Shown: positions 34,513-64,000 of the stretch, piece by piece
Position numbering within the stretch: the first letter of the stretch is position 1
How the letters are laid out: each line of letters begins with the position of its first letter
Source: Polyangium mundeleinium
GTDB taxonomy: Bacteria > Myxococcota_A > Polyangia > Polyangiales > Polyangiaceae
Length of the DNA stretch: 64,000 nucleotides
Direction: 5' to 3'
Assembly: GCF_028369105.1 (NCBI RefSeq)
Contig: NZ_JAQNDO010000001.1
Span: 1,971,711-2,035,710 of the forward strand
Translations under genes and position numbers: made by a program
Notes under the pieces: model-generated
What the model was told of the DNA's origin: nothing
Database searches by the model: none
The model's input: the letters and a program-made list of their open reading frames with translations, nothing else

Positions 34513-34513
34513 C

Positions 34514-35842: not shown

Positions 35843-35846
35843 GGGG

Positions 35847-40650: not shown

Positions 40651-40664
40651 GAGACAGAGCCTCG

Positions 40665-41753: not shown

Positions 41754-41927
41754 CCGGGGGGAAGGACCGGGAGCGGGAGGGAGCGAGCGCCCTCACGAGG
41801 GTGTTGTGTTGACGAGCCCGAGCACGGTAAAAGGGTAATGCCCAGGAGTACACGCCGTGCGCGGGCGGTTTTTCGGAGACTTCAAAAGCCGCGGCGTCGC
41901 CGCGAGAGCCGAGGAAGGGAGCCATCG

Positions 41928-42428: not shown

Positions 42429-42448
42429 GCCGCGCGGAGGGTACGAAC

Positions 42449-43951: not shown

Positions 43952-44055
43952 CGGGCCTCGCAAATCAGTGTAGGGTATGATCAGGAAGTTACCGCCCCGC
44001 GCTCGAACGGAGCGCGCGGGCGGTGACCGTCGACGGGGACGCGGAGGAGTGAACG

Positions 44056-44550: not shown

Positions 44551-44586
44551 CCCGAGGACGCTTCATCGTCCCAGGGGAACGACAGA

Positions 44587-45063
44587 ATGGCGAAGGCGTG
44601 GGGATCCACGAGCGCGGGCAGGGTTCCCCTGTTCGACCGGTTGGTCGACGAGAACCCTGCTCAAAAACAAGAAGCGGTCCCCTATTGCACCCTCGATCGA
44701 GACGGGCTGCGCGCCTCGGTGGCCCGCGAGCTCGGTCGAATCCTCGGCACCCGCAGCCCCATCTCCGGCGACGAGGCTCTCTCCCGGCAGCGCACGACCC
44801 TCGATTACGGTTTGCCCGACCTCGAGCTCGGCGGCCGTGCGCTCGTCCCGGAGGAGCTTCGCCGCCTCGTGCGCCTCGTGCAAAAGACGATCGAGGCGTA
44901 CGAGCCGAGGCTCCAGAACGTACGCGTGGAGATCAAACGACGCGAGGACGCGGCGCCGCATGCGCGCCTCGTGGTCGCGCTCTCGGCGACGCTCGTCACG
45001 GACGAGGTGCGTGAGCCGCTCTCCTTCGAGGCTCCGCTCGACGCGAGCCAGGGGGCCTTATGA
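44587..45063 (+). CDS. tssE: T6SS baseplate protein TssE (gp25-like).
   Basis: 158 aa. 'PLFDRLVDENP...' GPW/gp25 lysozyme-like fold pattern. Position hcp-tssE-tssF. Confidence 0.8.
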   Translation: MAKAWGSTSAGRVPLFDRLVDENPAQKQEAVPYCTLDRDGLRASVARELGRILGTRSPISGDEALSRQRTTLDYGLPDLELGGRALVPEELRRLVRLVQKTIEAYEPRLQNVRVEIKRREDAAPHARLVVALSATLVTDEVREPLSFEAPLDASQGAL

Positions 45064-51100: not shown

Positions 51101-51915
51101 CTGCGGGAGTTCCGGACGCGAAGGCAGCGGTTCCGGGCGCCCCTGCGGGAGTTCCGGACGCGAAGGCAGCGATTTCGGGCGCCCCTGCGGGAGTTCCGGA
51201 CGCGAAGGCAGCGGTTCCGGGCGCCCCTGCGGGAGTTCCGGACGCGAAGGCAGCGATTCCGGGCGCCCCTGCGGGAGTTCCGGACGCGAAGGCAGCGGTT
51301 CCGGGCGCCCCTGCGGGAGTTCCGGACGCGAAGGCAGCGGTTCCGGGCGCCCCTGCGGGAGTTCCGGACGCGAAGGCAGCGATTCCGGGCGCCCCTGCGG
51401 CGGTTCCAGGCGCCCCTGCGGCGGTTCCGGGTGCGGACGCGGCCGCCGCAGCAGCGCCGAAGCCCGGTGAAAAGCCTGCCATTCCAGGCGGCGCGGCCGT
51501 GCCCGCGGCCCCGAAGGTCGGCGATAAACCCGCCGTGCCCGCGGGCGCCGCGCCTGCCGCGCCCGCCGTCCCCGGTGCTCCCGCGGCCTCCGGTGCTCCC
51601 GCCGTCCCCGGTGCTCCCGCGGCCCCGAAGGTCGGCGACAAACCCGTCGTGCCCGCGGGAGCCGCTGCTCCCGCCGCGCCTGCTGCGCCCGGCGTCCCGG
51701 CGGCCCCTGCGGCCAAGCCCGCGGCGCCCGTGGTCCCCGCCGGCGCCAAACCCGCGCCCGCAGCCCCCGGCGCCCCCGTGGTCCCTGCCGGCGCCAAACC
51801 CACGCCCGGCGCCCCCGTGCCTCCGTCCGCGCCCGCATCCCCCGGCGCCAAGCCGGGCACCCCTGCCGCTCCCGGCGCGAAATGGCCCGGCAGCGGCGGC
51901 AAACCCGGCGTGTGA
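48109..51915 (+). CDS. Large (1268 aa) K/E/A-rich alpha-helical-repeat (apolipoprotein/tape-measure-like) protein with a C-terminal tandem Pro/Ala repeat region ('PDAKAAV' x6, then 'VPGAPAGVPDAKAA' x9) and a P/A/G/V-rich tail. Function unknown; encoded directly after tssG in the T6SS operon orientation.
   Basis: No TM or signal peptide. Strong host-like codon usage. Perfect 21-bp and 42-bp DNA tandem repeats at about 50923-51420. Confidence 0.6.
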   Translation: MTTADQSQGATESIPSKLGKFASEQIDKAEVTVTKGVSTVRDSTNQIISKAEEQILKLNKALYETKNGISAGIDTAIKETEGQLKGITPELKKMGEEAISTAKGKLDGLVDEVEGKLESQKDTLVKTAQDQIQSAADAAKGKIDEIGQLGEDQATKVLDAVKAQADTVDQKLGDLGGQIDGKIEAIGSDLRAKFELALAKVPDHDGAKVEMSANVDAVVDELRSATKDSIEQARETLKSLVKQTDDTIKQTIGDVRRTIGEVPTRINQCAQDIIAKVNDAIQKTIDEISNLAHGLVARTAELLNEALLTITSTVDKLLADGFALVRGIKADLDRLLDKLLEQIRDLTLGTLEDVRKAANELLGTFETECKKILQTMEDSVVGSVEELGGKMNASIKALQAELNLDADKIVRDLVAEGAKGHDDALADFISAGYEEDTSVIPKIRAKGEAAIKQIEAKTKAQGEKLIKDFEMQATLLKPKIQAQGIKVVAQIAALGPKLAMQAVQIASSIASSIKDKGEAVKKTFEELQKTLVDAITKKIPDYLDNCKKQIKAAADALVEAGKTFYEKTLADLMATIKAAEARFKKLALEMKDLIETQVLELVASIRRTVETSIQRFKDLGKAFEDKTNALINDIPARLIKLEQVARLAVDREIALAKGLANATKEDILLKARTALSEIKKAAYGVLGGIQGDLGAVQGSLALVIPAGAGLDAAGAINLAVSGGLEGMIASAANAASAVVTAGVNAAEAVNSAAEQAAAAMGAAGFEGAANALTGVLSQQMGEVRTEGEKAKNVIAAAKEKMTAVAKEASDTCTQAAQAAQAAAAEVVEAANATGDAVKASAENLTKGLEKAKDIVKEAGKTAMQSMKEAQDARKGGDGAQAGAGAQAGAGGADAAAGGAEAGGADAAAGGADAAAGGADGAAAPEGEAAADAAAEAAAPDAKAAAPDAKAAVPDAKAAVPDAKAAVPDAKAAAPDAKAAVPGAPAGVPDAKAAVPGAPAGVPDAKAAVPGAPAGVPDAKAAISGAPAGVPDAKAAVPGAPAGVPDAKAAIPGAPAGVPDAKAAVPGAPAGVPDAKAAVPGAPAGVPDAKAAIPGAPAAVPGAPAAVPGADAAAAAAPKPGEKPAIPGGAAVPAAPKVGDKPAVPAGAAPAAPAVPGAPAASGAPAVPGAPAAPKVGDKPVVPAGAAAPAAPAAPGVPAAPAAKPAAPVVPAGAKPAPAAPGAPVVPAGAKPTPGAPVPPSAPASPGAKPGTPAAPGAKWPGSGGKPGV
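50923..51420. repeat. Intragenic tandem DNA repeats (6 x 21 bp, then about 9 x 42 bp) encoding PDAKAAV/VPGAPAGVPDAKAA units.
   Basis: Near-identical repeat units with a g/a, t/c wobble, visible directly in the sequence. Confidence 0.85.
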
Positions 51916-51979
51916 CGTTCGCCCGCGGAGATGAGGCACAGCGCCGTTTGACCCGAAAGCCGGGCTCCGGCGTCGACCC

Positions 51980-53041
51980 ATGAGCGACTACCAGGACTGC
52001 ACGCTCATCGAGATTCGCGGGGCGAGGGAATTCGTCGTCGACGCACGACGGGTGCATGCAGATGCGCTGCTGCCGCTGCCGTCGGACCCCGCCACGATGC
52101 TGCGCATGCTTTGTGAAGGAACACGCGCGAAGGCGCTGCCGACGATCGCGCCCGACCTCGATTATTTCGACGAAGCGCAGCTCCTCGACAAGGCGAGTGG
52201 TTTCTTCGACGACGTGGAAGTCCTCGCGTGTGGCGCGCGCGCGGGCCAGCTCGAAGCGCGGTACCGGATCCGCTTGCGGACAAACCTCGACTGGCGTCGC
52301 CACGAAGCGGGCGCGCGGTGGGGCGCAGCCGCGGCCGTCTGGCTGCCCGGTGTGGGCGGAGCGCCCAGCGAGCTGCTCACGCATCTCGCCAGAAATGCGC
52401 GAGGCAAAAAAGGGGGTACGCCCGCCGAGCGCCTCGCGACGTTGAAGAACATCATTCGAACCCGCGTGCGCGACGTCGGCGCGGCCGCGAAGCAGCTCGG
52501 CACGTTCGAGGCCGAGGCTTCGGACATGGCGTTCGAGTTGAGCCGATTTCTCTATTACCCGTACCTCGCGGTCGACGTCGCGCCCGCGCTCGGGCTCCTC
52601 GGTCATCCGTCCGCCGTTGGACCGCTCGTCCTCGCGCTCCTGCACACCGAGCGCCTGAGGTTGCCCCATGACAAACCGTGTGCGCCGTATTTTCAGCAGG
52701 CGCTCGCCTGGCTCGGCCCGATCGCAAAGCCACTCGCCGAGGCTGTCCTCCGCGCGCCCGGGGAGGAGACCCTGGAGCTTGATTTTGCGCGATGGCGCGT
52801 GCTCGGCGACGATGACGCGCGCCGCAGGTTCGTCGCGACGAAGGCGCCCTCCAACGTCAACGCCGCCCTGATGTTCAAGCTCCGGCGCAAGGCCCTCCTT
52901 ATCGACGGCCCGAGCACGCAGCTTCGAGACATCATCGACGGCGTGCGGGAGGGCCTCCGCAAAAAGAAAGACCTCGACGGCCTCGGGACGTCCTTCGCGC
53001 AGCTCGAAAAGGTCGCCCTCGCGCGTTGCGCCAAGGCGTAA
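51980..53041 (+). CDS. Hypothetical protein (353 aa), convergent with the PAAR-like gene.
   Basis: Coding-like codon bias. No family recognized. Confidence 0.5.
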   Translation: MSDYQDCTLIEIRGAREFVVDARRVHADALLPLPSDPATMLRMLCEGTRAKALPTIAPDLDYFDEAQLLDKASGFFDDVEVLACGARAGQLEARYRIRLRTNLDWRRHEAGARWGAAAAVWLPGVGGAPSELLTHLARNARGKKGGTPAERLATLKNIIRTRVRDVGAAAKQLGTFEAEASDMAFELSRFLYYPYLAVDVAPALGLLGHPSAVGPLVLALLHTERLRLPHDKPCAPYFQQALAWLGPIAKPLAEAVLRAPGEETLELDFARWRVLGDDDARRRFVATKAPSNVNAALMFKLRRKALLIDGPSTQLRDIIDGVREGLRKKKDLDGLGTSFAQLEKVALARCAKA

Positions 53042-53047
53042 CGCCTC

Positions 53048-53437
53048 TCAGGGCACCTGGACCGTGACCTGCCCGGGGAACGAGATCTGAATCACGCCGC
53101 CCCACATACACATCAGCTTCGAGCTGTTGTTCAGCGCGGGCATGTTCGCCAGGAGCACCGTGGGTGCACCAACGATCCACGGCGCCGGCGTGTTCGGAAT
53201 GCACGGCATCGGCGTGAGCACGCCCATCGCCGCCGCCGTCGCCGCGGCCACCGTCGGGTTCGCCAGGCTCTGACACATCCCGAACGGCAGCACGTTCAGC
53301 ATCGGCTTGCCGTCCATGATGTTCGCCAGCGGTCCTGCGCTGTTCAACGTCCGGTTCGCGGGCAGCACCGTGAGCGAGCTCGGCGCCACGCCGAAGCTGC
53401 ATTGCATCATCGCGCCCATGCATACGTGCTGGCCCAT
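53048..53437 (-). CDS. PAAR-like DUF4280-family protein.
   Basis: 129 aa. 'CMGAMMQCSFGVAPSSLTVLP...LPFGMCQSLANPTVAAATAAAMGVLTPMPCIP...KLMCMWGGVIQI' matches the DUF4280 pattern. Located downstream of vgrG. Confidence 0.8.
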   Translation of the reverse strand: MGQHVCMGAMMQCSFGVAPSSLTVLPANRTLNSAGPLANIMDGKPMLNVLPFGMCQSLANPTVAAATAAAMGVLTPMPCIPNTPAPWIVGAPTVLLANMPALNNSSKLMCMWGGVIQISFPGQVTVQVP

Positions 53438-53439
53438 CG

Positions 53440-54192
53440 TCAGCCTCCCGCGAGCTTGTTCACGATCTTGTCGAAGAAGGACGTCTCCTTCTCCTCCTTC
53501 GACTTGGGAATGCCCTTGTCGTCGTACTCGACTTCGCCGCGCTTCTCGCCGTCCTTGTACGACGCCTTCGCCTTCAGCTTGCCTTGCACGTCGTAGCTGA
53601 ACGCGTCGCCTTGTTTCTTGCCGTTGTCGTACGTGGCGCGCTCGCGGACCTCGCCGTTCGGGAAGTACTCGATCACTTCCCCGTGCAGTTTGTCCGCCTT
53701 GTAGTTCGCTTTCCGCAGCGTGTTGCCCTTGCCGTCGAGGAACAAGGACTCGCCTTCGAGCTTGCCGTTCTTGTAGAACGACCGCACGACCTCGTTTCCC
53801 TGCTCATCGAACGACAGGAACGGGCCGTTCTGTTTGCCCTTCTCGAAATGCATCAGCGTCCGCAGCCGGCCCTCGTCGTAAAGACGCGTCGGCCCGTGCT
53901 GCTCGCCTTTCACGAACGTCACGATCTGCGAGATCTTGCCGTGCTCGTCGAAGAGCTTCGTCTCGCCGTGCAGCGCGCCGTTCTCGAAGGACGAACGCTC
54001 GACCTCGCGCCCCTCCGGGTCGTACGTGATCGACAGCCCGTGGAGCTTGCCCTTCGCGTAATTCGCCCGGTGCGCGATCTGCTTTTCGGTCTCCCCGTAC
54101 TGGACGAACTCCCCGTGCAGCTCGCCCTCTTCCATCTGGAACCGGGAGATCAGCTTGCCGGTTTCGTCGCGCTCTTCGTGGTCGGTCGGCAT
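53440..54192 (-). CDS. MORN-variant (YwqK-family) repeat protein, 250 aa, between vgrG and the PAAR-like gene.
   Basis: About 8 tandem 'G..HG....Y..NG.L' MORN_2-type repeats. The real start 'MPTDHEERDE' lies 12 nt after the vgrG stop; the 627-aa ORF in the track is an antisense/frame read-through of vgrG. Confidence 0.75.
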   Translation of the reverse strand: MPTDHEERDETGKLISRFQMEEGELHGEFVQYGETEKQIAHRANYAKGKLHGLSITYDPEGREVERSSFENGALHGETKLFDEHGKISQIVTFVKGEQHGPTRLYDEGRLRTLMHFEKGKQNGPFLSFDEQGNEVVRSFYKNGKLEGESLFLDGKGNTLRKANYKADKLHGEVIEYFPNGEVRERATYDNGKKQGDAFSYDVQGKLKAKASYKDGEKRGEVEYDDKGIPKSKEEKETSFFDKIVNKLAGG

Positions 54193-54203
54193 CGGGCCCT
54201 CGC

Positions 54204-56204
54204 TCAGTTGATCTTCACCATGCCGCCCTTCAACGTCAGCATGCCGCCGCCCTCCACCGCCGCCTGCGCGCCGCCCTTCGCCTTCAGCGCGATCGCGCCC
54301 TCGAGCGTCATGTTCGTCCCGCCCTTGGCCTTGAAATCGGTGCCGGCCTTCAGCGTCATCCCCGTCCCGGACTCGGCCTTGAAATCCGTGCCCGCCTTCA
54401 TCGTGAACGCCTGCTTGGCCTTGATCGTGACGCTCTTCGCCTCGATCACGAGGTCGCCGTCGACCTTGATCGTGTAGTTCTTCGTCACCTTGTAATCGAG
54501 GTTCGCCTTGTTCGTGTGCGCCTCGTCCTTGGTGATCTCCAGCGTGCGTTTGCCCTTCACGCTGTGCGTCTCGTCGCCCTTGTCGACCTTGATCGTGCGG
54601 TTGCCCTTGGTGACCGTGAGCGACTCGTCGCCCTCTTCGATCGTCACCTTCCGCTCGTTTTTGACGTTCTTCGTGTAATCGTGGAGGACCTTCACCGTCC
54701 AGTCGTTCTCCACCTCGAAGAGCATGTCCTTCTGGGCGTGCGCGTAGAACTCCTCGCTGTCCTTCTTGTCCTCGAAGCGCAATTCGTTCCCCGCGTCGCC
54801 CTCCTTCGTCGAGCGGCTCAGGATCGTGCTCTTCGTCTGCGCGCCCGGCAGCCCATAAGGCACCGTTTGCTCCGCGTTGTACACCGAGCCCGTCACGAGC
54901 GGCCGGTCCGGATCGCCGTCGATGAAGCTCACGACGACCTCTTGCCCGATGCGCGGCAAGAACCACGCGCCCCAGCTCTTGCCCGCCCAGGACTGCACGA
55001 CCCGCACGAAGCACGAGCTCTTGTCGTCCTTCGCGCCCTTGCGATCCCAGTGGAACTGGACCTTGATGCGCCCGTATTCGTCCGTCCACTGCTCCTCGCC
55101 GCTCTTGCCCACGACGACGGCCGTTTGCGTGCCGGGGATCGCGGGCTTCGGCGTGATGCGCGGCGGGCGGTACGGCGTCTTCTTCGGGAAGCCCTCGAAG
55201 GTATTCGTGTACCCCTCCTGGCTCGCCCGATGCACGACCGCGCCGAGGACCCAGTCGGTGTTCGCGTCGTCCCGATCGTGCTCGTCGAGCTTGAACGCGT
55301 GGCCCGCGGTGAAGGCGCGACAATTGGATGCGCCGGACAAACGCACCGCCCGCGCCTCCTCCGCTTCGATGCGGAGCTTCGCGCGCGCGTCGCCCGGGCT
55401 CTTCTCGATGTGCCCGCCCGGGTACTCGAAGAGCTCGAGCTTGCCGGATTCACCCGAGACCTCCGCGAGCAGCGACGTGCTCGGCATCTCGAAGTTGTAA
55501 TCCGTCGACGCGTACTTCCCCGCGACGATCTCTTCTTCGAGCGTGCACTCGACGACCGCGTCCTCGTCCGTCGACGACGAGAACTGCTCGACGAACCGCG
55601 CCTTGTCGAGGTTCGGGCACGGCACGGCCGACGCGCTGTCGTCGGTCAAGACCATCACGTGCTTGCCGTCCTCGTGCGTGAAATAATAGTGGATCCCCTC
55701 GTCCTCCATGAGACGCGACACGAAATCGAGCGCGGTCTCCTGGTACTGCACGCAGTAGGGGCGCGGCGCGTACGAGCCCTTCAGCGAATCCTTGAAGTGC
55801 TCGCCCGACGAGAAGCCGAGCTCCTGGAAGAGCGCCTTCAGGATGTCGGGTACGCTCTTCTCCTGGAAGATGCGGCAATCGCTGGTCTTGCCGAGGAGCC
55901 ACAACCACGGGTGCAGCTCCGCGCGGTAGCGTGTCTGCTTGCCGACGCGACCTGCCTGGACGAACCGCGTGCAGATCCCGTGGATGAAGCGCGGCTTCTC
56001 CTTGGCCATGCCCCGGATCGTCAAGGTCACGCCCTTGCCGACGATCGCCTTGAAGTCGAGCGCCTTTTCCGGCGACACGAGCTCGAGCTCGAAGCGGAAG
56101 AGCCCCGAGATCCGCTCTTCACCGTGCAGATCGACGAGCAGAACCGCATCCGCGCCGAAAGGCGTCGAGATGGCGATGCCGAGGCTGCCCTGCGGATAAG
56201 GCAT
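54204..56204 (-). CDS. vgrG: VgrG (TssI) spike protein.
   Basis: 666 aa with gp27-like and gp5-like regions ('RFIHGICTRF', 'WAGKSWGAWFLPRIGQEVVVSFIDGDPDRPLVTGSVYN'), and C-terminal beta-helix repeats 'TMKAGTDFKA...'. Confidence 0.9.
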   Translation of the reverse strand: MPYPQGSLGIAISTPFGADAVLLVDLHGEERISGLFRFELELVSPEKALDFKAIVGKGVTLTIRGMAKEKPRFIHGICTRFVQAGRVGKQTRYRAELHPWLWLLGKTSDCRIFQEKSVPDILKALFQELGFSSGEHFKDSLKGSYAPRPYCVQYQETALDFVSRLMEDEGIHYYFTHEDGKHVMVLTDDSASAVPCPNLDKARFVEQFSSSTDEDAVVECTLEEEIVAGKYASTDYNFEMPSTSLLAEVSGESGKLELFEYPGGHIEKSPGDARAKLRIEAEEARAVRLSGASNCRAFTAGHAFKLDEHDRDDANTDWVLGAVVHRASQEGYTNTFEGFPKKTPYRPPRITPKPAIPGTQTAVVVGKSGEEQWTDEYGRIKVQFHWDRKGAKDDKSSCFVRVVQSWAGKSWGAWFLPRIGQEVVVSFIDGDPDRPLVTGSVYNAEQTVPYGLPGAQTKSTILSRSTKEGDAGNELRFEDKKDSEEFYAHAQKDMLFEVENDWTVKVLHDYTKNVKNERKVTIEEGDESLTVTKGNRTIKVDKGDETHSVKGKRTLEITKDEAHTNKANLDYKVTKNYTIKVDGDLVIEAKSVTIKAKQAFTMKAGTDFKAESGTGMTLKAGTDFKAKGGTNMTLEGAIALKAKGGAQAAVEGGGMLTLKGGMVKIN

Positions 56205-56319
56205 GGATCTCGGGAAGAGCGTACCGGGGTTCTCAGGCTTTCGGCAAGAGGCTTGATCTCCGGCGCGCGCTCATCGAAGATCACGAGACCGTGGTACGCT
56301 TCTGGGAAGAGACCTGCCG

Positions 56320-57186
56320 ATGACGTTCTTTCGAACGGGCATGGGGCTCTTCCAGCTCGGCCGCCCCAAGCTCCCGAGCCGCGACGAGGCCGTCGAGATG
56401 CTCGTGCAAATGGCCCAAAAGCGGGGCGGCGCGCGGTATCTGCGAGGCGTCCTCGCCGACGACGTCCCCAAGGTCCTCGTCGACACGATGCCCGACGACG
56501 AGGTCTTGCGTTCGCTCGTCGAGCGCATCTCGACCGGACGCATCACGTTCGTGCTCTTGCGCCCGCGCGACACCCGCGCGCCGGGCTTCTTCGTCGAGGG
56601 CGACGCGACGGGCGCCGTGCTCGGCCCGGAAAACAAGGCCGGCGATCTGCGCCCCGCGCCCGAGGTCCCGCCCGAGTATCCGGTGCTCGCGCGCGTCGAG
56701 AGCGATCAGGTCATCGAATCCACGGCGAAGCTCGTGGCGGATCTCGCGGCGCTGCTCTTCGGCAGGTTCGCCCGGGAGAAACGCGAATCGACGATCGCGC
56801 GCACGTACGTGCTCGTCGCGGGCGAGGAGGGATCGCGGATCCAGGGCGCGCGCAGCACGGTCGATATCGCGCTCGACACCGCGCGCTGGCCTGGCGGCGG
56901 CCTCGGGCGGCCGAAGCCTTCGGTGCCGGTCGAATACAAGAGCGCCGCGAAGACCACCGGCGAGAGCGCGCGCTTCGCGATCGACAAGCTCTCCGCCTCG
57001 CTCGGCCCTGCGTCGCCTCCGACGTCGAGCCGCCCCGCGCCCGCGGTGCCGGACACCTACGTGAACGTCGCGAGTGGCACCGCGCAGACGACGAAGGGCG
57101 CGATCGACTCGCTCGGCAAGAGCTTCGCCGACCTTTTCCGCGAGGCGCCTTTCGTGCGTCCGCGTAACACGAGTCCTGTCGAATGA
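56320..57186 (+). CDS. Hypothetical protein, paralog A of a duplicated pair (shares a conserved central domain with the downstream gene).
   Basis: 288 aa. The 'NKAGDLRPAPEVPPEYPVLARVESDQVIESTAKL' block is shared with gene B, including a 64-bp identical DNA run. Confidence 0.5.
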   Translation: MTFFRTGMGLFQLGRPKLPSRDEAVEMLVQMAQKRGGARYLRGVLADDVPKVLVDTMPDDEVLRSLVERISTGRITFVLLRPRDTRAPGFFVEGDATGAVLGPENKAGDLRPAPEVPPEYPVLARVESDQVIESTAKLVADLAALLFGRFAREKRESTIARTYVLVAGEEGSRIQGARSTVDIALDTARWPGGGLGRPKPSVPVEYKSAAKTTGESARFAIDKLSASLGPASPPTSSRPAPAVPDTYVNVASGTAQTTKGAIDSLGKSFADLFREAPFVRPRNTSPVE

Positions 57187-58730
57187 GCGCCGAGACGACA
57201 GGCTTCGGGAACATCCTGCTGGGCCGCCCGCGGCGCCTCGATCGGCACGGCATCCTCGCGTTTTTGCGCAACGTCGCGCTCGATCGCCGCGGCATGCTGG
57301 AGCTCCGGCGCATGCTCGCCGAGGAGCTCCATCGCTCCTCGATTCATCACCTCCGCGACGACGTTGTGATCGAGCAGCTCGCGGATCGATACCTGCGCGG
57401 CTCGCTCTCGCTCGTCCTCGTGCACCCGCGCGACGTCGAGCTCGAAGGCTTCATGGTCGAGGGCGCGGACACGACGCCCCTCACGGGTCCGAAAAACGAG
57501 GCCGGCGATCTGCGCCCCGCGCCCGAGGTCCCGCCCGAGTATCCGGTGCTCGCGCGCGTCGAGTCCGATCAGGTCATCGACTCCACGCTGAAGCTCATCG
57601 CGAAGCTCACCGATCTGCTCTTCGGCTCGTTTGGCCTGCAAAAACGCCCCTCGACGCTCGCGAAAGAGCTCGTGCTCCTCGCGGCCGACGAGGCGCGCGG
57701 CGTGAAGACCGCGAACACGAAGGTCGATCTCGACCTCGCGCTTCAGCTTCATCCCCAAGGCAACGTCATCGTCCCCGATCCGCAGGTCAAGGACGCGTAC
57801 GTCGCCGCCGCGGCCGAGATTGCGGCCGGGCCGCATCCCGCCGCGAAGGGCCTCATCGATCTGATCTTCCCGCTCGCGCGCGTCGACGTCTCGCGCAGGT
57901 TCGACAATCCCGTGAAGAGCGGGTCTGTCCGGAATGACCGGATGGGCGAGGACAAGGCCGAGGACGGCTCGGGGGATTGGGTCGAAATCGAACTCGTCGA
58001 CGACGGCGATCCGCCGAAGCCGCTCGTGGGCCAGCCGTTCCGGGTCGAGCTTCGGAATGGCAAGGTCGTCGAGGGCGTGCTCGACGAGAATGGCAAGGCG
58101 CGCGTCGAGGGCGTCACGGCGGGCAGCGCCACGGTCACGTTCCCCGAGATCGACAAGAAGAAGTGGAAGCCCAACGACGAGGGCAAGGCCTACGGCCTCG
58201 GAGGCCCGGCGCCTGCCGGCGCGAGCCCCGTCACGGGATCGTCCGTCGCGGAGGACACGACGTTCGTCGAAGTGGAATTGCTCGACGACGGCGATCCGCC
58301 GAAGCCCGTGGCCGGCGCGCGTTATCGTGTCGAGCTCGACAGCGGCGAGACCTTCGAGGGGACGCTCGACGACAGCGGCAAGGCGCGCCTCGAAGGTTTG
58401 CCCAAGGGCAAGGGGACGATCACGTTCCCCGACATCGATCAAGGGCAATGGGAGCCGAACGAGGGCGGCACCTTCACGCCCCCGAGCGCGGGCGCGAGCG
58501 CCGCGTCCGCGGCGTCGCCCGTACCTGCGGGCGCGTGGACCGACATCGAGCTCGTCGACGACGGCGACCCGCCGAAGCCCGTGGCCGGCGCGCGGTATCG
58601 CCTGGAGCTCGCGGACGGCAAGGTGATCGAGGGGACGCTCGACGAGAATGGCAAGGCGCGGATCGACGACGTCCCCGAAGGCAGCGGGACGCTCACGTTC
58701 CCGGACATCGACGAAGGCCAGTGGCGCTGA
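57183..58730 (+). CDS. Hypothetical protein, paralog B: the conserved N-terminal domain plus three CarboxypepD_reg-like beta-sandwich repeats.
   Basis: 515 aa. ATGA overlap with gene A. Three repeats of 'ELVDDGDPPKPVAGARYR.EL..G...EGTLDENGKAR...VP.GSGT.TFPDID'. Confidence 0.55.
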   Translation: MSAETTGFGNILLGRPRRLDRHGILAFLRNVALDRRGMLELRRMLAEELHRSSIHHLRDDVVIEQLADRYLRGSLSLVLVHPRDVELEGFMVEGADTTPLTGPKNEAGDLRPAPEVPPEYPVLARVESDQVIDSTLKLIAKLTDLLFGSFGLQKRPSTLAKELVLLAADEARGVKTANTKVDLDLALQLHPQGNVIVPDPQVKDAYVAAAAEIAAGPHPAAKGLIDLIFPLARVDVSRRFDNPVKSGSVRNDRMGEDKAEDGSGDWVEIELVDDGDPPKPLVGQPFRVELRNGKVVEGVLDENGKARVEGVTAGSATVTFPEIDKKKWKPNDEGKAYGLGGPAPAGASPVTGSSVAEDTTFVEVELLDDGDPPKPVAGARYRVELDSGETFEGTLDDSGKARLEGLPKGKGTITFPDIDQGQWEPNEGGTFTPPSAGASAASAASPVPAGAWTDIELVDDGDPPKPVAGARYRLELADGKVIEGTLDENGKARIDDVPEGSGTLTFPDIDEGQWR

Positions 58731-58739
58731 GCGCGCGGC

Positions 58740-61700
58740 TCACATGGGCTTCTTGATGTTCCGGTACTTCGTCTTGCCGTTCGCGTCGCTGTAGGCTTCG
58801 AGGATCTCTTTGCGGTTCGTCCCGGTGGTGTACGAGACGTGCACCCAGCGGTTGAATTCGAAGATCACCTGATCGAAGGGCATCTTCGATTCGAACGCGA
58901 TGTAGTTGAAGACCTCCTTCACGGTCTTGCCGGAGACCTTGAAATCGGCGGCCTCGCCCTTCACGTGTTGCGACGTCGTCGATCCGCCGATGGCGGTGTT
59001 CAGCTTCTCGCAACGGAAGCCGCTGGAGACGGCGACAGAGGCGCCGAAATGCGCGCGGACCTTCTCCAGCACGTTGTCGCAGAGCGCCTTCATGGCTGCG
59101 ATCTCGGAGGCCTTGGGCGTGTTCTTGATGCCCTTCTTGTCGGCCGTCGAGGAGGCGATGAACTCGGCGAGCGTGAAATGCTCGCTGAGCTTCCCGTCGG
59201 TCACGTTGCCGTCGTACTTCTTTCCGCCGCCCGACGAGCTGGACGAGGAGCTGGACGACGAACTCGACGACGACGAGCTGCTCGTGTTCGACGAGCTCTG
59301 CGAGCCCGTGCTCGACGACGTTTGCGAGCTCGTATTCGACGACGTTTGCGAGCTCGTCGACGAACTCGACGACGACTGCGCGCTCGACGATGCCGCCGGC
59401 TGCGGGGCTGCCTCGCCGCTCGCCAGCGCGACGCGGTAGAGGAACGTGATCGGGTTGTAATGCCAGACCTTGGGGCTCGCGGGCAGCGGGACCTTCTTCC
59501 CTTGCGCCTCCTGCCACCAGATCGAGGGCTTCAGCCGATCCTCGAGCCCCCACGTGTTGAACCGGCCCTTCATCGCCGGGATCGCCTTCGACAGATCCAC
59601 GGCCCACTCGCTGATGAAGCGGCACGCATAGTTGCGCAGGTCCCGCGACTTGGGGTTCGTCTTGTAGAAACGGTGCAGCTCGTCGACGCTGAGGATCTCG
59701 TTCTCGTCGTAGAAGCTCCACGAGACCTCGTCCTGCTCCACCATCTTCAGGATGGCGTCGCAGTCCATGTTGAAATCGTCGTCCATGTCCTCGACCTTCT
59801 TGGCCCAGGGCAGCACGAACTCCTCCGAGAAGATCTCCCAGTGGACCATGCCGGTCCGCGCGCCGGTCGAGCCATACAGGCCCGACACCCAGAGCACGTC
59901 ACCCGTCTCCACCTCGCGATCGACCTTCGCCACGACGCCCTTGTCGAGCTCCTTCACGAGCGCCGCGTCGAGCTCGACGCCGCCATTGCCCGCCGGCGGC
60001 GGCGGCTGGCAGAGCTTGCCCCACGTCGTCCCGCCCGGATCCACGCGGCCGTCCGGCTTCTTCGCCCACGCCGACTGGAACGTCTTGATCGCGTCCTTCG
60101 TCGCCTGATCACAGGCGTCCTGGATCGCGCCCTTGTATTTGCCGTGCTTCTGCAGCCGCGTCTGCACCTTGCGGACGTCGGCCGCCTTGTTGATCCCGCC
60201 CTCGCCCACGGAGGCGGAGATCGTGTCCGTCGACGCCGGCTCTGTCGCGGGCTTCGGCGCGTGGAGCCATTTCACCGCCTTGAAGAGCTCGTTCGAGCCG
60301 TCGAACTTCACGGCCCCGAGGTGCATGTAGAGCGACCAGAACTTGTATTGCTTCTTCTCGTCGAGCTTCGGGAACGTGACCGCTTCGTGGTACGACTGGA
60401 ACCAGTCGCCCTTCACCGCGACATATCCCTTTTTCCCCTTCAGCGCCGCGTCCGCCGAGCGCGTCACCGTCACCTGGGCCCAGACGAACCCGTCCGCCGA
60501 GGTGTACTTGTCCGTGACGAGGTCGACGCGGTCGCCTTCCTTCAGCACGCCGACCTTGTCGGCCGATTTCGTGGCCTTCGCCCGCACGTTCACGTCCTGC
60601 GTGGCGCGATAGCCGATCACCTTGCCGCGCGGGGCCGTCTTGTTCAGCGTCGCCCCGTCGATCTCGTGCTGGAGCAGCACGAAGCTCATGCTGCCGTAAT
60701 GCGTGATCGCCTTCTTCGGGTCCGAGGGCAAACGCGCCGCGATGACCTTCCCCTTGTAAGGCGCCACGACCTGCGTCCCCTCGGCCACGTGCAGGTGCAC
60801 GCCGCCATGCCAGACCGTGTTCGCGCCGAGCGGGTAATACCCGCCTTTGCTCTCGACCTCGGTGTGCGCGTAGTACGCCGCCGCGTTCTCGGGCGAGGCG
60901 ACGCGCGAGTCCTTCAGCGCCACGGGGAAGCTTATCGGCGTGCGCCGCGGGCTCAGCGCGTCACCCTCGACGAGCGTGTAAATGATCGAGCGCGTCCCGT
61001 CCTTGCTCGCCTTCGGCGACAGCTCGTTCGTCGTCGTGTTCTTGAGCGAGTGATCCGTCTCGAGGAGCTGGATGAAGCGCAGGTAGTTCGCCATCCCCGA
61101 GAGGACCTGGCAGCCCTCGGACCACGCGCCCGCGCGATCCTCGGCGACCGTGTTCTTCTCGCCGCCGTAATGGATGTTGATCGACGCGTTGTCGTGCGTG
61201 CTCGCCGCGCTCTCGCCGACGGCGCCGACGTTGCTCGCGTCCGTGATGCGCGTGCACTTCACGTGCGGATCCGGGTTCAGCGCGCGATAGCCGAACCCCT
61301 TGATGTCCGCGTACGCCTTCACGCCCACGAGCGGTTTGTACTCCCTGTCCTTCTTGTGCACGGCCAGCTTGTACTTGTGCTGGCCGAGCAGGATGACGGC
61401 CGACGCGCCCGCCGACGTCCACTCCGTCGTGCACTGGAACTTCGAGACGGCTTTCTTGCCGTCCTTCTTGTAGATCAGGAAGAGGCAATCGTCGTATTTC
61501 GTGTTCGTGCTCGGGACGGGCACCATCGTGTCGAACTCGAACCCGCGCGCGCCGAGGAGGTTCATGCGGCCCTCCTCGTCCTGGAAATCGAACTCCGCCT
61601 TGCCCTCGTTGCCGAACCGCTTCTGCGAGCGCTTCCACACGTCGCGCAGGTGATCGTAGAGCTGCTCCTGCGAGAAGTTCTTCAGGTCGAACGTGGTCGT

Positions 61701-62492
61701 CGGCTCGCGGAGGATCACCTGATCGCTCGGGCCCGAGCTCGTGCTCTGGCTCTGGCCTTTCCCGCCGCAAAGGATGAAGAGCTGGTAGCGCGCGCCGAGC
61801 GTCAACCGCGAGTGGTCCTTCACCCAGGACTCCTTCGCGGCCGTCTCCCAGTTCTTCTCCTTGATGGCCTTGTTCATATTCTTGAACTTGTCGAGGCCGG
61901 AGTTGCCGACCGCGAAGGCCAGGTTGATGACGAGCGCCCAGGCGATGGCCGGGTAATCGAGGTAGCCGCCCTCGTGCTGCTTCGTGTTCGGATACGCGGT
62001 GTTGAACAGCGAGTCCGCCTTCGACTTCATCACCTCCGTGCACTTCTTCCGCGCCGTCTCCGTGCTGATCTGGCACTTCATCAGCGAGGCGTACTTCGAG
62101 GCGATCGGTGGTTTGTCGCTGTGGTCGTTGAAATGATCCTTCGCGGCGTCCCAGTCTTTTTTCTTGTCGGACGCGGAGGCCGCGGCGCCCGTGCTCTTCA
62201 ACGTCATCGGCAGGCTGTCGAGCGCGCTCTTCGCGCTGCCATCGAGCAGGAGGCCAATGCCGATCGTCACGAGCCCGAGGTGATCGCAGTACATGTGCGT
62301 CAGGCAGCCCTCGAACCGCCCCGCGAGCAGCGCGGCGATCTCCAGGCACTTCGCCGCGCCCACGTCGCGCACCGTCTTCCCGACGTACGGCGACACGTCT
62401 GCCCACACCGCGTCGAGCTCCCCCTGCGTGCAGACGCCGCCCTTGTCGGACGTGAGCTTGTCGGTGATGTACTTGTCGAGCTTCAGGGTCAT
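58740..62492 (-). CDS. Giant (1250 aa) multi-domain peptidoglycan hydrolase: N-terminal GH24 (T4-lysozyme-like) domain, a possible Cys-His domain, an M23/LytM-like peptidase domain, a PG_binding_1 domain, a Ser/Gly-rich linker and a C-terminal peptidase M15A (zinc D-Ala-D-Ala carboxypeptidase-like) domain. No signal peptide; candidate T6SS cargo effector.
   Basis: 'FEGCLTHMYCDHLGLVTIGIG' lysozyme motif. 'GGVHLHVAEGTQVVAPYKGKVIAA...HYGSMSFVLLQHE...SLYMHLG' is M23-like. 'VRKVQTRLQKHGKYKGAIQDACDQATKDAIKTFQ' is PG-binding. 'SQHVKGEAADF' is the M15 SxHxxGxAxD motif. Confidence 0.8.
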   Translation of the reverse strand: MTLKLDKYITDKLTSDKGGVCTQGELDAVWADVSPYVGKTVRDVGAAKCLEIAALLAGRFEGCLTHMYCDHLGLVTIGIGLLLDGSAKSALDSLPMTLKSTGAAASASDKKKDWDAAKDHFNDHSDKPPIASKYASLMKCQISTETARKKCTEVMKSKADSLFNTAYPNTKQHEGGYLDYPAIAWALVINLAFAVGNSGLDKFKNMNKAIKEKNWETAAKESWVKDHSRLTLGARYQLFILCGGKGQSQSTSSGPSDQVILREPTTTFDLKNFSQEQLYDHLRDVWKRSQKRFGNEGKAEFDFQDEEGRMNLLGARGFEFDTMVPVPSTNTKYDDCLFLIYKKDGKKAVSKFQCTTEWTSAGASAVILLGQHKYKLAVHKKDREYKPLVGVKAYADIKGFGYRALNPDPHVKCTRITDASNVGAVGESAASTHDNASINIHYGGEKNTVAEDRAGAWSEGCQVLSGMANYLRFIQLLETDHSLKNTTTNELSPKASKDGTRSIIYTLVEGDALSPRRTPISFPVALKDSRVASPENAAAYYAHTEVESKGGYYPLGANTVWHGGVHLHVAEGTQVVAPYKGKVIAARLPSDPKKAITHYGSMSFVLLQHEIDGATLNKTAPRGKVIGYRATQDVNVRAKATKSADKVGVLKEGDRVDLVTDKYTSADGFVWAQVTVTRSADAALKGKKGYVAVKGDWFQSYHEAVTFPKLDEKKQYKFWSLYMHLGAVKFDGSNELFKAVKWLHAPKPATEPASTDTISASVGEGGINKAADVRKVQTRLQKHGKYKGAIQDACDQATKDAIKTFQSAWAKKPDGRVDPGGTTWGKLCQPPPPAGNGGVELDAALVKELDKGVVAKVDREVETGDVLWVSGLYGSTGARTGMVHWEIFSEEFVLPWAKKVEDMDDDFNMDCDAILKMVEQDEVSWSFYDENEILSVDELHRFYKTNPKSRDLRNYACRFISEWAVDLSKAIPAMKGRFNTWGLEDRLKPSIWWQEAQGKKVPLPASPKVWHYNPITFLYRVALASGEAAPQPAASSSAQSSSSSSTSSQTSSNTSSQTSSSTGSQSSSNTSSSSSSSSSSSSSSSSSGGGKKYDGNVTDGKLSEHFTLAEFIASSTADKKGIKNTPKASEIAAMKALCDNVLEKVRAHFGASVAVSSGFRCEKLNTAIGGSTTSQHVKGEAADFKVSGKTVKEVFNYIAFESKMPFDQVIFEFNRWVHVSYTTGTNRKEILEAYSDANGKTKYRNIKKPM

Positions 62493-62514
62493 GGCATCGT
62501 CCCGCGAGCGCCGC

Positions 62515-62802
62515 TCACATCGAGAGTTCGAAGGAAGGCAGGACCTCGAGCGAATTCACGAGCACGGTCCCCTCGGCCGAGCGCGCGACGAGCCGGATCC
62601 CCATCTGCATCGCCGGCTTCTCCGGCGACTCGCCCGCCGCGGCCTCTTCCTCGGGGATCTCGGGATCCTCGGCGGGCGCGCCCTCGGCGCTCTCCTCCTC
62701 GGGCTCCGCGCCGCCCGTCGGGGCCGTCGTCGCGCCTTTCTCCTCCAGCGCGTCGTCTGCCTCCGAGATGAACTCGAGCCCGAGATCCTCGACGTCATCC
62801 AT
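62515..62802 (-). CDS. Small acidic protein (95 aa), immediately upstream of the giant hydrolase gene in the same operon. Function unknown (adaptor or chaperone candidate).
   Basis: pI strongly acidic. 'MDDVEDLGLEFISEADDALEE...' No signal peptide or TM. Confidence 0.4.
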   Translation of the reverse strand: MDDVEDLGLEFISEADDALEEKGATTAPTGGAEPEEESAEGAPAEDPEIPEEEAAAGESPEKPAMQMGIRLVARSAEGTVLVNSLEVLPSFELSM

Positions 62803-62816
62803 GGCCGCTCTCCCGA

Positions 62817-63449
62817 TCAGAACCCGTAAAACTCCGCGAGCGCCTTCTGCGTCGCCGCGTCGTACTTCCCCGTCACGCCGAGCTTTTGAATGCGCTGGAA
62901 GAACTCGATCGCGGCCGTGGTCTCGTCGCCGAGCTCGCCGTCGAGCTCGCCGCGGTAGAGGCCGAGGTTGTGGAGGCGCGTCTGCGCGCCGCGGATCGTG
63001 TCGATCGGATCGATGTCACCGAGCACCAGCGTGTACGTCTGTTGCCTGCGCGGCAGCGTCAGCACGAGGTCTTTCTGATCCGACGGCACCTCGGCTTCGA
63101 GCATCCCTTCGCCCGAGGTTTTTCCTTCGATCTCGTGCTCGCCGAACTCGATCCGGTAGGGCTCGTCCTTCAGCGGCTCGCGGTTTGCCGTGAGCCGGAG
63201 GTGGACCTTGATGCGCTCGCGGTGGATCACGAACCGGTGCGCCTTGCCCGTCTCGATCGGCGACTGCCGCGGCTTCGCCTTCGGCACCGTCACCTTGTCG
63301 CCCGGCGCGAGCACGTTCGGATCTTTGCGCGTCTTGCGCAGCGCCGCGTTCTCCGGCGCTTCCCATACCGTCTTCCAGGGGACGCCGTACTGCGCCGCTA
63401 TGGTGGCGATGCACTCCCCCGGTTTGACCTCGTGTGTCGTGCCTGCCAT
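62817..63449 (-). CDS. LysM-domain protein with a C-terminal peptidoglycan-binding (PG_binding_1-like) domain; no signal peptide.
   Basis: N-terminal 'HEVKPGECIATIAAQYGVPWKTVWEAPENA...LAPGDKVTVP' LysM. C-terminal 'TRLHNLGLYRGELDGELGDETTAAIEFFQ'. Start 'MAGTTHEV' chosen; the track ORF extends upstream of it. Confidence 0.7.
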   Translation of the reverse strand: MAGTTHEVKPGECIATIAAQYGVPWKTVWEAPENAALRKTRKDPNVLAPGDKVTVPKAKPRQSPIETGKAHRFVIHRERIKVHLRLTANREPLKDEPYRIEFGEHEIEGKTSGEGMLEAEVPSDQKDLVLTLPRRQQTYTLVLGDIDPIDTIRGAQTRLHNLGLYRGELDGELGDETTAAIEFFQRIQKLGVTGKYDAATQKALAEFYGF

Positions 63450-63487: not shown

Positions 63488-64000
63488 TCACTCCATCAAA
63501 AAACCCATCCGCGCAAAGCGCAGGAGTTTTTGCTCGGTGATCTCGGCGAAGACCTCGCCGTCCACGCAGGGCGCGCCGTTCATCTCCACCGACACCACGC
63601 CGCGCCGCGCGTCTTCGAGCGCCGCCGCCGTGAGCGCCGCGGCGTCGCGCGTTCCATCCATGCGCGCGAGGATCACCCGATCGAACGAGTCGACCTGCAC
63701 GCCTTCGTGCAGGAGCGTGGTGCAAAACGGGCTGCCGATGCTCGCCTGATAACGGGCGAACGGGAAGGCGCGTGGTCTTTCGTCGGGCGCCCGGGCCGCG
63801 GGCTTCGCCGAGGCCCAGAGCCGGATCGCGCCCTTCGTGTAGAGCCCGAGCAGGTTCCGCGCGAGCCGCGCCCGCGCCTCGCCCTCGAATGCGGCGAGCC
63901 CGAGCTTCTCGCCGGTCTCCCAGGCGAGCGCGTCGAACGAAAGCCCGCCCGGCGCATACGCGGCGAGCGCGACGAGCGCGGCCTTGAGCGTCGCCTGGTC
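63488..64000 (-). CDS. Hypothetical protein, 5'-partial (continues beyond the window end).
   Basis: The open frame on the minus strand runs from the window edge to the stop at 63488. Coding-like bias. No family recognized. Confidence 0.35.
   Translation of the reverse strand, partial: DQATLKAALVALAAYAPGGLSFDALAWETGEKLGLAAFEGEARARLARNLLGLYTKGAIRLWASAKPAARAPDERPRAFPFARYQASIGSPFCTTLLHEGVQVDSFDRVILARMDGTRDAAALTAAALEDARRGVVSVEMNGAPCVDGEVFAEITEQKLLRFARMGFLME

Follow-up and report, generated by a model that had tools for sequence, protein, structure and literature searches.

Gene content of the locus

The window analysed here, a 64,000-nucleotide stretch of a Polyangium mundeleinium contig, carries a type VI secretion system (T6SS), with TssK, L, M, A, B, C, Hcp, TssE, F and G encoded at 34496–47887 on the plus strand. 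An earlier note, made from the letters alone, had described a three-gene minus-strand operon beside the vgrG locus; the ORF listing confirmed the three ORFs at its coordinates. The genes considered below are the following:

53048..53437, minus: DUF4280 (PAAR-like) protein, 129 aa (Pfam PF14107, 1.5e-35)
53440..54192, minus: MORN_2 repeat protein, 250 aa, between vgrG and the DUF4280 gene (Pfam MORN_2, 4.7e-18)
54204..56204, minus: VgrG spike, 666 aa (Pfam Phage_GPD, 5.5e-97; Gp5_trimer_C; Phage_base_V)
56320..57186, plus: 288-aa paralogue of the N-domain of the 515-aa protein, without repeats (45% identity over aa 1–202)
57183..58730, plus: 515-aa protein, an N-domain of no known family plus three ~65-aa repeats
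58740..62492, minus: 1250-aa protein, very probably a WHIX-class T6SS effector (ATG start; stop codon 58740–58742)
62515..62802, minus: 95-aa acidic protein (ATG start)
62817..63449, minus: 210-aa LysM + beta-domain + PG_binding_1 protein (ATG start; no signal peptide)

Codon-position GC bias supports 58740..62492 as a real gene (0.55/0.45/0.93, in DNA of ~68% GC). An overlapping plus-strand ORF at 58839..62771 was not picked by the codon-position GC filter; its product is Arg/Ala-rich, high-GC and out of frame, and it was treated as spurious. Gaps of only 14 and 22 nt separate the three minus-strand genes, which makes an operon plausible. It is convergent with the gene at 57183–58730(+), the two stop codons lying 9 nt apart, and it is separate from the vgrG transcription units, without co-transcription with vgrG.

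The called starts of the three operon proteins are supported by homologues that begin at the same residues (MTLKLD..., MAG.TH... and M.D.EDL...), the effector homologues P0005 and P0008 sharing MTLKLD. For the 210-aa protein the mechanical ORF extends to a TTG at 63725, and the length is counted from the ATG. The stop-to-stop ORF of the 1250-aa protein opens only 21 codons 5' of its ATG (62555 vs 62492), and an N-terminal hydrophobicity scan found no signal-like segment in any of the three proteins, in agreement with the claim that the large protein lacks a signal peptide.

The proposed link of the effector to T6SS and vgrG also held, since the Tss cluster, VgrG and the DUF4280 gene all lie in the window and homologues of the effector adjoin VgrG. 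An allusion to extracellular contractile injection systems (eCIS) did not, the locus being a canonical TssA-M T6SS (TssA, J-less K/L/M, B/C, Hcp). No link to the effector operon was seen for the other large genes in the window, which encode TPR proteins, a PLD/VWD protein and an FGE-sulfatase.

Domain organization of the 1250-aa protein

From the N-terminus, the protein is laid out as follows, all on the minus strand:

61758..62375, minus: GH24/T4-lysozyme-like muramidase domain, aa ~40–245 (E61, D70, T76)
60948..61697, minus: YkuD-fold (L,D-transpeptidase/carboxypeptidase-like) His/Cys domain ("X"), aa ~266–515
60627..60857, minus: WHIX region 1, first part, aa 546–622 (W561-H562-G-G-V-H566; FVLLQH609E)
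60378..60626, minus: SH3b-like domain nested in WHIX, aa 623–705
60258..60377, minus: WHIX region 1, second part, aa 706–745 (FWSLYMH724L, of which L, H and L are invariant)
60003..60230, minus: PG_binding_1 domain between the two WHIX regions, aa 755–830
59418..59981, minus: WHIX region 2, aa 838–1025 (GMVH884WEIFS; R953; SE962W; W993; VWH1011YNP)
59223..59405, minus: Ser/Thr/Gln-rich low-complexity linker, aa 1030–1090, read from the translation
58743..59210, minus: Peptidase_M15_3 (LAS-type Zn peptidase) domain, aa 1095–1250 (S-Q-H1176-x-x-G-x-A-x-D1183; W-V-H1218)

Pfam and NCBIfam scans of the whole protein and of segments gave no match for aa 261–545 or 830–1060, and sequence searches of the PDB returned only weak matches to T4 lysozyme and to 1lbu. 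The M15 domain is the clearest assignment by Pfam (PF08291, 88.3 bits, E 4e-25, cut-off 23.2); H1176, D1183 and H1218 are present, and the SxHxxGxAxD motif lines up with that of a Streptomyces albus Zn D-Ala-D-Ala carboxypeptidase (1lbu). The GH24-like domain falls below the Pfam gathering threshold (Phage_lysozyme, sub-threshold) and its catalytic loop was modelled with low confidence, though E61, D70 and T76 align to E11, D20 and T26 of T4 lysozyme and are kept in P0005 and P0008. The third enzymatic domain has a YkuD fold bearing a catalytic His and Cys (H...S-x-G-C). The aligned catalytic residues are intact in the GH24-type, YkuD-fold and M15 domains.

The YkuD-like domain had no Pfam match even at E<=10, and its sequence did not match canonical YkuD families significantly. 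A word-indexed homologue search with this segment found only two extra proteins, and an exhaustive phmmer search only 71 clusters, 64 of them new beyond those already known; WHIX is carried by 41 of these 64, the rest being mostly short. Judged by sequence, the domain is a rare family almost always fused to WHIX. Tlde1 of Salmonella is an L,D-transpeptidase-like T6SS effector, a periplasmic toxin with a YkuD-type fold and a His...S-x-G-C signature; the domain described here is alike by that description, without detectable similarity to canonical YkuD. More than one wall-cleaving activity on a VgrG-delivered polypeptide is likewise found in Tse4 of Acinetobacter baumannii, and TseP of Aeromonas dhakensis is a bifunctional peptidoglycan hydrolase, also VgrG-delivered; both differ from the 1250-aa protein in their domain families.

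Against this layout, the domain list of the earlier note was largely borne out: it rightly listed GH24-like, PG-binding (PG_binding_1, aa 755–830) and M15 modules, and the L,D-transpeptidase-like domain that it suspected from the Cys-His "WSEGCQV" residues corresponds to the YkuD fold. The supposed LytM-type endopeptidase is the WHIX domain, and the SH3b insert had been overlooked.

A bipartite WHIX domain with a degenerate LytM fold

WHIX was described in 2025 as a T6SS export domain (Fridman et al. 2025, PMC12135965), and the published domain is an export and VgrG-binding module that is non-toxic alone (PMC12135965). In the 1250-aa protein, a bipartite WHIX domain occupies aa 546–1025, interrupted by the SH3b and PG_binding_1 inserts. 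Across alignment A1 (26 sequences), W561, H562, two Gly residues, H566, H609, H724, H884, R953, E962, W993 and H1011 are invariant. An HMM built from this alignment was run against residues 1–480 of the founding WHIX protein, Va01435 of Vibrio alginolyticus (WP_005373349.1; sequence taken from the AlphaFold file of PMC12135965), and scored 60.5 bits and E 1e-20 in a single-sequence search. The match spans region 1 and enters region 2, of which it covers the beginning; the WHY.P motif closing region 2 also aligns to the founding protein, with a weak local score. The first part of region 1 aligns to WHSGIH and NFVLIEHE of Va01435 and the second part to FYTLYMHL, and the motifs WHxGxH, NFVLxxHE, FYxLYMHL, xHxExFS and WHYxP are collinear between the two proteins. 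With 545 aa N-terminal to WHIX (an N-terminal extension of >99 aa marks subclass II) and M15 at the C-terminus, the protein has the form of a subclass II effector.

This domain is what had been read as a LytM-type endopeptidase. Its core does have the LytM/M23 beta-fold, but HxxxH (HGGVH) replaces HxxxD and GMVHWE lacks the first His of HxH, a pattern that is family-wide. Pfam M23 (PF01551) scored 16.2–20.2 bits against a cut-off of 28.7, covering only profile positions 3–30. [quoted passage not shown]

Homologues and synteny

The 1250-aa protein has 14 homologues, mostly in Polyangium. In every Polyangium locus examined the effector gene lies beside genes for VgrG, a MORN protein and a DUF4280 protein, and homologues adjoin VgrG at seven loci (L001, L002, L003, L007, L016, L040 and L090). 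The MORN_2 protein is 71–91% identical in L001 and L002.

Two relatives are particularly informative: WP_272421927.1 (P0006), a syntenic Polyangium jinanense protein with 42% identity over 64% of the query, and WP_281319639.1 (P0012), encoded at the equivalent genomic position in Polyangium sp. y55x31. Both share with the 1250-aa protein the YkuD-like domain, WHIX and the slot between a PKMT-type methyltransferase gene and vgrG-MORN-DUF4280. Unlike it, both carry an N-terminal muramidase of the pesticin type (PF16754), and the C-termini differ: M74/MepA-like in P. jinanense, a different ~700-aa extension in y55x31 and M15 here. The slot is thus polymorphic among Polyangium strains, with differing N- and C-terminal enzymes and M15, M74 and ~1700-aa alleles, a kind of variation typical for effectors and not for a housekeeping assembly factor.

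An accession search found WP_272421927.1, WP_272459081.1 and WP_281319639.1 in the tree and CLANS files of PMC12135965, the first and last also in its N-terminal-extension file; WP_281319639.1 is the Table 2 example for "Lysozyme-like" (PMC12135965). The architecture is therefore not unprecedented: it is that of a subclass II ("double-blade") WHIX effector whose Polyangium relatives were already catalogued. Like Awe1 of Aeromonas jandaei and other subclass II effectors, the protein has a central bipartite WHIX with WHxxxH, a variable insert between the WHIX regions, peptidoglycan-targeting domains on both sides, no signal peptide and a position beside vgrG/PAAR-like genes. It differs in having two N-terminal enzymatic domains (GH24-like and YkuD-like), hence three predicted catalytic domains, in the SH3b and PG_binding_1 domains nested in WHIX, in its tail-less cognate VgrG, in the absence of flanking signal-peptide immunity genes and in its lineage, Myxococcota.

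Partner proteins

The 210-aa protein matches Pfam LysM marginally (21.1 bits, cut-off 20.9) and PG_binding_1 with 47.6 bits. Counterparts 38–70% identical occur in L001, L002 and L005, and the protein is kept with WHIX genes in Polyangium and a Myxococcaceae MAG; a Phycisphaerales contig has the LysM N-domain only. The idea of a universal "post-VgrG" gene held only in part: among 80 loci related to the LysM/PG_binding gene, a VgrG gene lies directly 5' (ending <=1.5 kb upstream) in 15 of the 63 with enough upstream sequence, and many are orphan cassettes. Polyangium sp. y55x31 has neither this gene nor the small tail-protein gene beside its effector allele, so that not every allele requires the LysM protein.

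In Ketobacter (Kalk_10460), a stand-alone LysM protein was required for VgrG–effector binding, as judged by co-immunoprecipitation (Commun Biol 2023, PMC10673891). Such proteins are likewise small, cytoplasmic and encoded next to or between vgrG and a wall-degrading effector, and PG_binding_1 in vgrG loci was reported only in gamma-proteobacteria (PMC10673891). Here, LysM, a beta-domain and PG_binding_1 are joined in one 210-aa protein, and the bridging is putative. By this analogy the protein most likely bridges VgrG and the effector, in line with the loading role first proposed for it.

The 95-aa acidic protein had no match in Pfam or NCBIfam. It ends in a conserved C-terminal tail (...MGIRLVARSAEGTVLVNSLEVLPSFELSM), and the C-terminal ~30 aa are kept in small ORFs adjoining WHIX genes at six loci (L001, L002, L005, L007, L009 and L010), with only weak, uncertain matches to the tail motif in Nannocystis loci. 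The tail (...N.L.V...F..S.-COOH) is the sole conserved part of the protein.

The repeats of the 515-aa protein (aa 266–329, 356–424 and 451–515) share 36–57% identity with the ~65 C-terminal residues of VgrGs from other lineages (L003, L007, L024, L040 and L054), where they form a C-terminal extension, and its family is kept beside vgrG in L001, L002 and L090. The protein thus bears detached copies of a VgrG C-terminal domain that is missing from VgrG in Polyangium itself. Like the adjacent 288-aa protein and the 95-aa tail protein, it probably also acts in loading.

Immunity genes

Flanking immunity genes accompany the large majority of published WHIX effectors, a usual and not a defining feature (PMC12135965). 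As the earlier note had it, no adjacent periplasmic immunity gene is apparent: a simple N-terminal hydrophobicity scan found no signal-peptide immunity gene among the neighbours from 48109 to 63449, and no signal-peptide or lipoprotein gene was found flanking the effector at this locus. The relatives L003 and L006 do have flanking lipoproteins, and strain 6x1 has a signal-peptide protein, not obviously related, ~5 kb past the window end.

Interpretation

The 1250-aa protein is very probably a cargo effector of the adjacent T6SS, belonging to subclass II ("double-blade") of the WHIX class; the absence of a signal peptide and the vgrG linkage point the same way, as had been suspected. By analogy with the Aeromonas and Vibrio WHIX work, WHIX would load the protein onto the VgrG/PAAR-like spike, so that the entire polypeptide would be delivered to a neighbour's periplasm. 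Glycan strands, and peptide stems or cross-links, would be cut there by the three enzymatic domains, with the two inserts (SH3b and PG_binding_1) keeping the effector attached to the sacculus. The 210-aa protein would most likely bridge effector and VgrG, as stand-alone LysM proteins do elsewhere. Against this loading route counts that the Polyangium VgrG, which ends ...KGGMVKIN without a C-terminal extension, lacks a tail of the kind bound by the WHIX cavity in Aeromonas (PMC12135965). Further points against the effector reading are the convergent orientation of the operon outside the vgrG transcription units, the lack of flanking immunity genes and the weak sequence matches of the GH24-like and YkuD-like domains.

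It is doubtful that the WHIX region serves as a fourth "blade", with M23-type metallo-endopeptidase activity of its own in addition to, or even in place of, a loading role. The change of HxxxD to HxxxH, the lost first His of HxH and a sub-threshold Pfam match confined to the first ~28 residues all speak against it, and binding is the role of degenerate LytM domains elsewhere, for example in EnvC. In addition, WHIX from Awe1 sufficed for export on its own and was non-toxic in the E. coli periplasm (PMC12135965). A wall-remodelling enzyme for the cell's own T6SS assembly, like TagX or MltE, would fit a gene that adjoins the T6SS core cluster and combines wall-cleaving with wall-binding domains; a WHIX export domain, an effector-like polymorphic slot and the lack of a signal peptide or membrane anchor to reach the cell's own periplasm make it very improbable.

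Myxobacteria secrete many lytic enzymes, and the protein could be a predatory autolysin, released by lysis or through Sec/Tat from a true start upstream with a signal peptide. Only those 21 codons of open frame precede the ATG, however, P0005 and P0008 begin at the same MTLKLD, and no hydrophobic N-terminal segment exists, so that we give this reading almost no weight. Scarcely credible, too, is a virion- or tail-associated lysin of phage or eCIS origin in a prophage remnant, with the LysM protein as a baseplate component: apart from the T6SS genes themselves, the Pfam-scanned genes of the window and the called genes of related loci included none of phage or eCIS type, the surrounding system is a canonical T6SS, and vgrG-MORN-DUF4280 synteny is stable across Polyangium.

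Within the effector reading, a rather unlikely proposal is that WHIX loading has been rewired in Polyangium. The peptide capped by the WHIX cavity would be supplied in trans to the tail-less VgrG by the small acidic protein and/or the 515-aa protein, with the LysM/PG_binding protein as a bridge, to mount a "three-blade" toxin without adjacent cognate periplasmic immunity proteins. If so, self-protection would come by other means, e.g., wall chemistry or immunity genes elsewhere.

Overall, the 1250-aa protein is an unusually heavily armed example of the known WHIX class, not a new kind of system. With three predicted wall-cleaving and two wall-binding domains on one WHIX chassis it is an extreme example, and by sequence it brings predatory and social myxobacteria into a class whose experimental tests have so far been confined to Vibrio and Aeromonas. 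A single operon here joins two separately published loading elements, WHIX and a stand-alone LysM protein. Leads on how large cargo may be mounted on a tail-less VgrG come from the small protein with its tail, from the detached copies of a VgrG C-terminal domain and from the lack of immunity genes.

Gene Calls and Nearest Relatives of the Operon

Mechanical ORFs are plentiful in the window because its GC content is ~64–76%, and a codon-position GC filter singled out 58740–62492 (−), the gene of the 1250-aa effector, as real (GC1/2/3 = 0.55/0.45/0.93). The start residues of the operon proteins are the same in homologues. ORF calls, codon-position GC, and shared starts therefore confirm the coordinates, strand, and sizes that the earlier note gave for the three ORFs. 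At the DNA level, 53040–63997 matches a Polyangium sp. 6x1 contig with 94% identity, and the best protein match is a Polyangium MAG protein (97% identity).

Operon and T6SS genes of the window (T6SS genes, VgrG, MORN_2, and DUF4280 assigned by Pfam)
34496–47887, +, TssK, TssL, TssM, TssA, TssB, TssC, Hcp, TssE, TssF, TssG
53051–53437, −, DUF4280 PAAR-like protein
53443–54192, −, MORN_2 protein, 250 aa
54207–56204, −, VgrG
56320–57186, +, 288-aa gene, between vgrG and the effector operon
57183–58730, +, 515-aa gene, between vgrG and the effector operon
58740–62492, −, effector
62515–62802, −, 95-aa ORF, directly upstream of the effector gene (gap 22 nt)
62817–63449, −, 210-aa ORF (from ATG), upstream of the 95-aa ORF (gap 14 nt)

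The 288-aa and 515-aa genes point away from vgrG and towards the effector gene; the 515-aa and effector genes end in stop codons only 9 nt from each other (58728–58742), with no space for separate terminators. In Polyangium, the gene on the upstream side of the effector slot is always of the PKMT type (protein-lysine methyltransferase-like, WHD_PKMT); it lies at 63491–64000 (−) in the window and at L001:596-2179, L002:14564-16108, and L090:8415-9959 in related loci. In the window it ends 41 nt before the start of the 210-aa ORF and could be co-transcribed with the operon. In all Polyangium loci seen, a MORN_2 protein conserved at 71–91% identity is encoded between vgrG and the DUF4280 gene (53440–54192 (−) in the window); it may act as an accessory of the spike or as an adaptor.

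The scanned window genes (30095–34186 (+) and the cluster 34496–47887) gave no sign of a ClpV-type AAA+ ATPase, and the 1364-aa protein upstream of tssK (30095–34186 (+)) had no Pfam match. Within the T6SS cluster, immediately 3′ of tssG, a 1268-aa protein (48109–51915 (+)) matched no family above threshold; its N-terminal half is an apolipoprotein-like coiled coil, and its long tail is made of tandem repeats rich in Ala and Pro (AAVPDAK / AVPGAPAGVPDAK). Another toxin could be encoded at 18050–21946 (−), ~12 kb from the T6SS cluster, where a 1299-aa protein has a PLD-like phospholipase domain and a VWD domain.

The Effector Is a Multi-Domain Member of the WHIX Class

When aa 546–1035, the region that the earlier note had called M23-like, was used as a query, it recovered 53 proteins, mostly myxobacterial and ~600–850 aa long, in which the module is joined to various N-terminal enzymes (pesticin-like, C39-like, and amidase_2). 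The module is bipartite, with conserved segments at aa 547–612 plus 716–725 and at aa 840–1020 separated by variable inserts, and a 26-sequence alignment has W561, H562, G, G, H566, H609, H724, H884, R953, E962, W993, and H1011 as invariant. This layout and the WHxxxH motif agree with WHIX as defined in the literature (PMC12135965): this two-part T6SS domain takes its name from that motif and is sufficient for T6SS export, peptidoglycan-targeting toxins flank it, and it is proposed to cap the VgrG C-terminal tail. On the founding member (V. alginolyticus WP_005373349.1, sequence taken from the AlphaFold file in that paper's supplement), an HMM of the alignment scored 60.5 bits with every signature motif collinear. 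The tree of that paper and its set of N-terminal extensions include two Polyangium proteins, WP_272421927.1 and WP_281319639.1 (PMC12135965). The former is the P. jinanense protein from the syntenic position; the latter fills the same slot in Polyangium strain y55x31 and serves in Table 2 as the example for “Lysozyme-like” extensions of the N-terminus. The HMM score, collinear motifs, and catalogued relatives establish, at the sequence level, that the effector belongs to WHIX subclass II.

Across the family, the M23 signature is altered in WHIX: HxxxD has become HxxxH, and HxH lacks its first His. The structural intuition behind the M23-like label was thus right, given a LytM-like fold, but the region does not qualify for peptidase family M23, since it lacks the motifs that define the family and scores below the Pfam threshold. 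WHIX on its own was found to be non-toxic and sufficient for export (PMC12135965); we found no statement in the text of that paper on a LytM-like nature. By our own inference, this nature suggests that the “deep cavity” was once a groove for substrate and has come to bind a peptide tail.

Pfam placed Peptidase_M15_3 at aa 1105–1220 (88 bits) and PG_binding_1 at aa 771–819, while the SH3_3, M23, and Phage_lysozyme matches were all below threshold. Three catalytic domains are predicted in total: GH24-like, YkuD-like, and M15. An exhaustive phmmer search returned only 71 clusters for the YkuD-like domain among 1.84 billion representatives. WHIX immediately follows this domain in 41 of the 64 further matches; the remaining matches are mostly short proteins and probably fragments. 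Across this small family, WHxxxH almost always comes ~105 residues after the domain. The YkuD-fold domain (window 60948–61697 (−)) also occurs in a Phycisphaerales protein (L089), where a LysM domain opens the product of the upstream gene.

T6SS Linkage and Allele Variation

WHIX genes occur near vgrG in several lineages. The finding is real, and the earlier note's reading of the protein as a T6SS effector is well supported.

Related loci linked to vgrG
L001, operon of 210-aa, 96-aa, and 1186-aa genes, adjoining vgrG-251aa-DUF4280 and TssG...TssB
L002 (P. jinanense), operon of 429-aa, 71-aa, and 1295-aa effector genes, divergent from vgrG
L003, 700-aa WHIX protein directly after vgrG
L007, YkuD-like+WHIX protein two genes after a VgrG-like gene
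L016, WHIX gene in a Nannocystis vgrG locus
L040, WHIX gene in the vgrG locus of a Bryobacteraceae MAG
L090 (y55x31), published example WP_281319639.1 in the same slot, flanked by the PKMT-type methyltransferase gene and by vgrG

The C-terminus of the slot's alleles is M15, M74, or longer depending on the strain; polymorphic effectors behave in this way. WHIX alleles and accessory sets between the PKMT-type gene and vgrG-MORN-DUF4280 differ among L090, L002, L001, and the window: the y55x31 slot is without LysM and small-protein genes, and the operon is inverted in P. jinanense.

Candidate Loading Accessories

The 210-aa partner combines LysM, a beta-domain, and PG_binding_1 and lacks a signal peptide. 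Relatives with 38–70% identity stand beside WHIX genes in Polyangium and a Myxococcaceae MAG, and a scan taking one genome per species yielded 80 related loci in Myxococcota, Acidobacteriota, Planctomycetota, and other phyla (L009–L088). Where VgrG is present, the typical order is TssE-F-G, a ~930-aa gene, VgrG, LysM/PGB, and a variable 300–820-aa protein; one locus (L025) has two tandem LysM/PGB-plus-cargo pairs. The upstream DNA was long enough at 63 loci; VgrG lies directly upstream in only 15 of them, and others resemble orphan cassettes. The distribution of the 210-aa protein fits a published role: LysM (and PG_binding_1) proteins that stand alone in vgrG loci are required for VgrG–effector binding and accompany mainly Lyz-like, NlpD-like, and NlpC/P60 toxins (PMC10673891).

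A recurrent multi-phylum cassette, with or without a nearby VgrG gene, comprises a VgrG C-terminal-type domain, a LysM/PG_binding_1 protein, and a variable large protein; the first is VgrG-fused or a small ORF (e.g., L024, L054, L048, L062, L025, L015, L033, L077). The cassette looks like a widespread effector-loading module outside Proteobacteria.

No family was assigned to the 95-aa acidic protein; its ~30 C-terminal residues recur, conserved, in small ORFs next to WHIX genes at seven loci. The 515-aa protein contains three ~65-aa repeats, each with 36–57% identity to an extension at the C-terminus of VgrGs in other lineages (L003:7673-9955, L054:7640-9982, L024:7511-9949, and L040:2-2326). 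VgrGs with such a repeat-like extension occur in Acidobacteriota, Planctomycetota, and other Myxococcota. In Polyangium, VgrG stops right after the beta-helix. Because the repeats are homologous to extensions that this VgrG lacks, the domain appears to have been detached in Polyangium and to sit on a protein of its own, whose gene is divergent from vgrG. The WHIX cavity in Aeromonas binds the 14 C-terminal residues of VgrG4 (PMC12135965); it is plausible that in Polyangium the tail or tail domain would be supplied in trans.

Immunity and Position within the WHIX Class

The earlier note reported no obvious adjacent periplasmic immunity gene, and no N-terminal signal-like segment was found in the neighbours between 48109 and 63449; its question of self-protection therefore stands. 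Lipoproteins are encoded in the flanks of two relatives (L003 and L006). Most published WHIX effectors are flanked by immunity genes (PMC12135965), and the lack of a signal-bearing neighbour is the main departure of the locus from that pattern.

The architecture is that of a class described in 2025, in which Polyangium relatives are already catalogued, and the effector is a heavily armed new member of it. The residual interest lies in the absent immunity genes, the loading accessories, and the LytM origin of WHIX.
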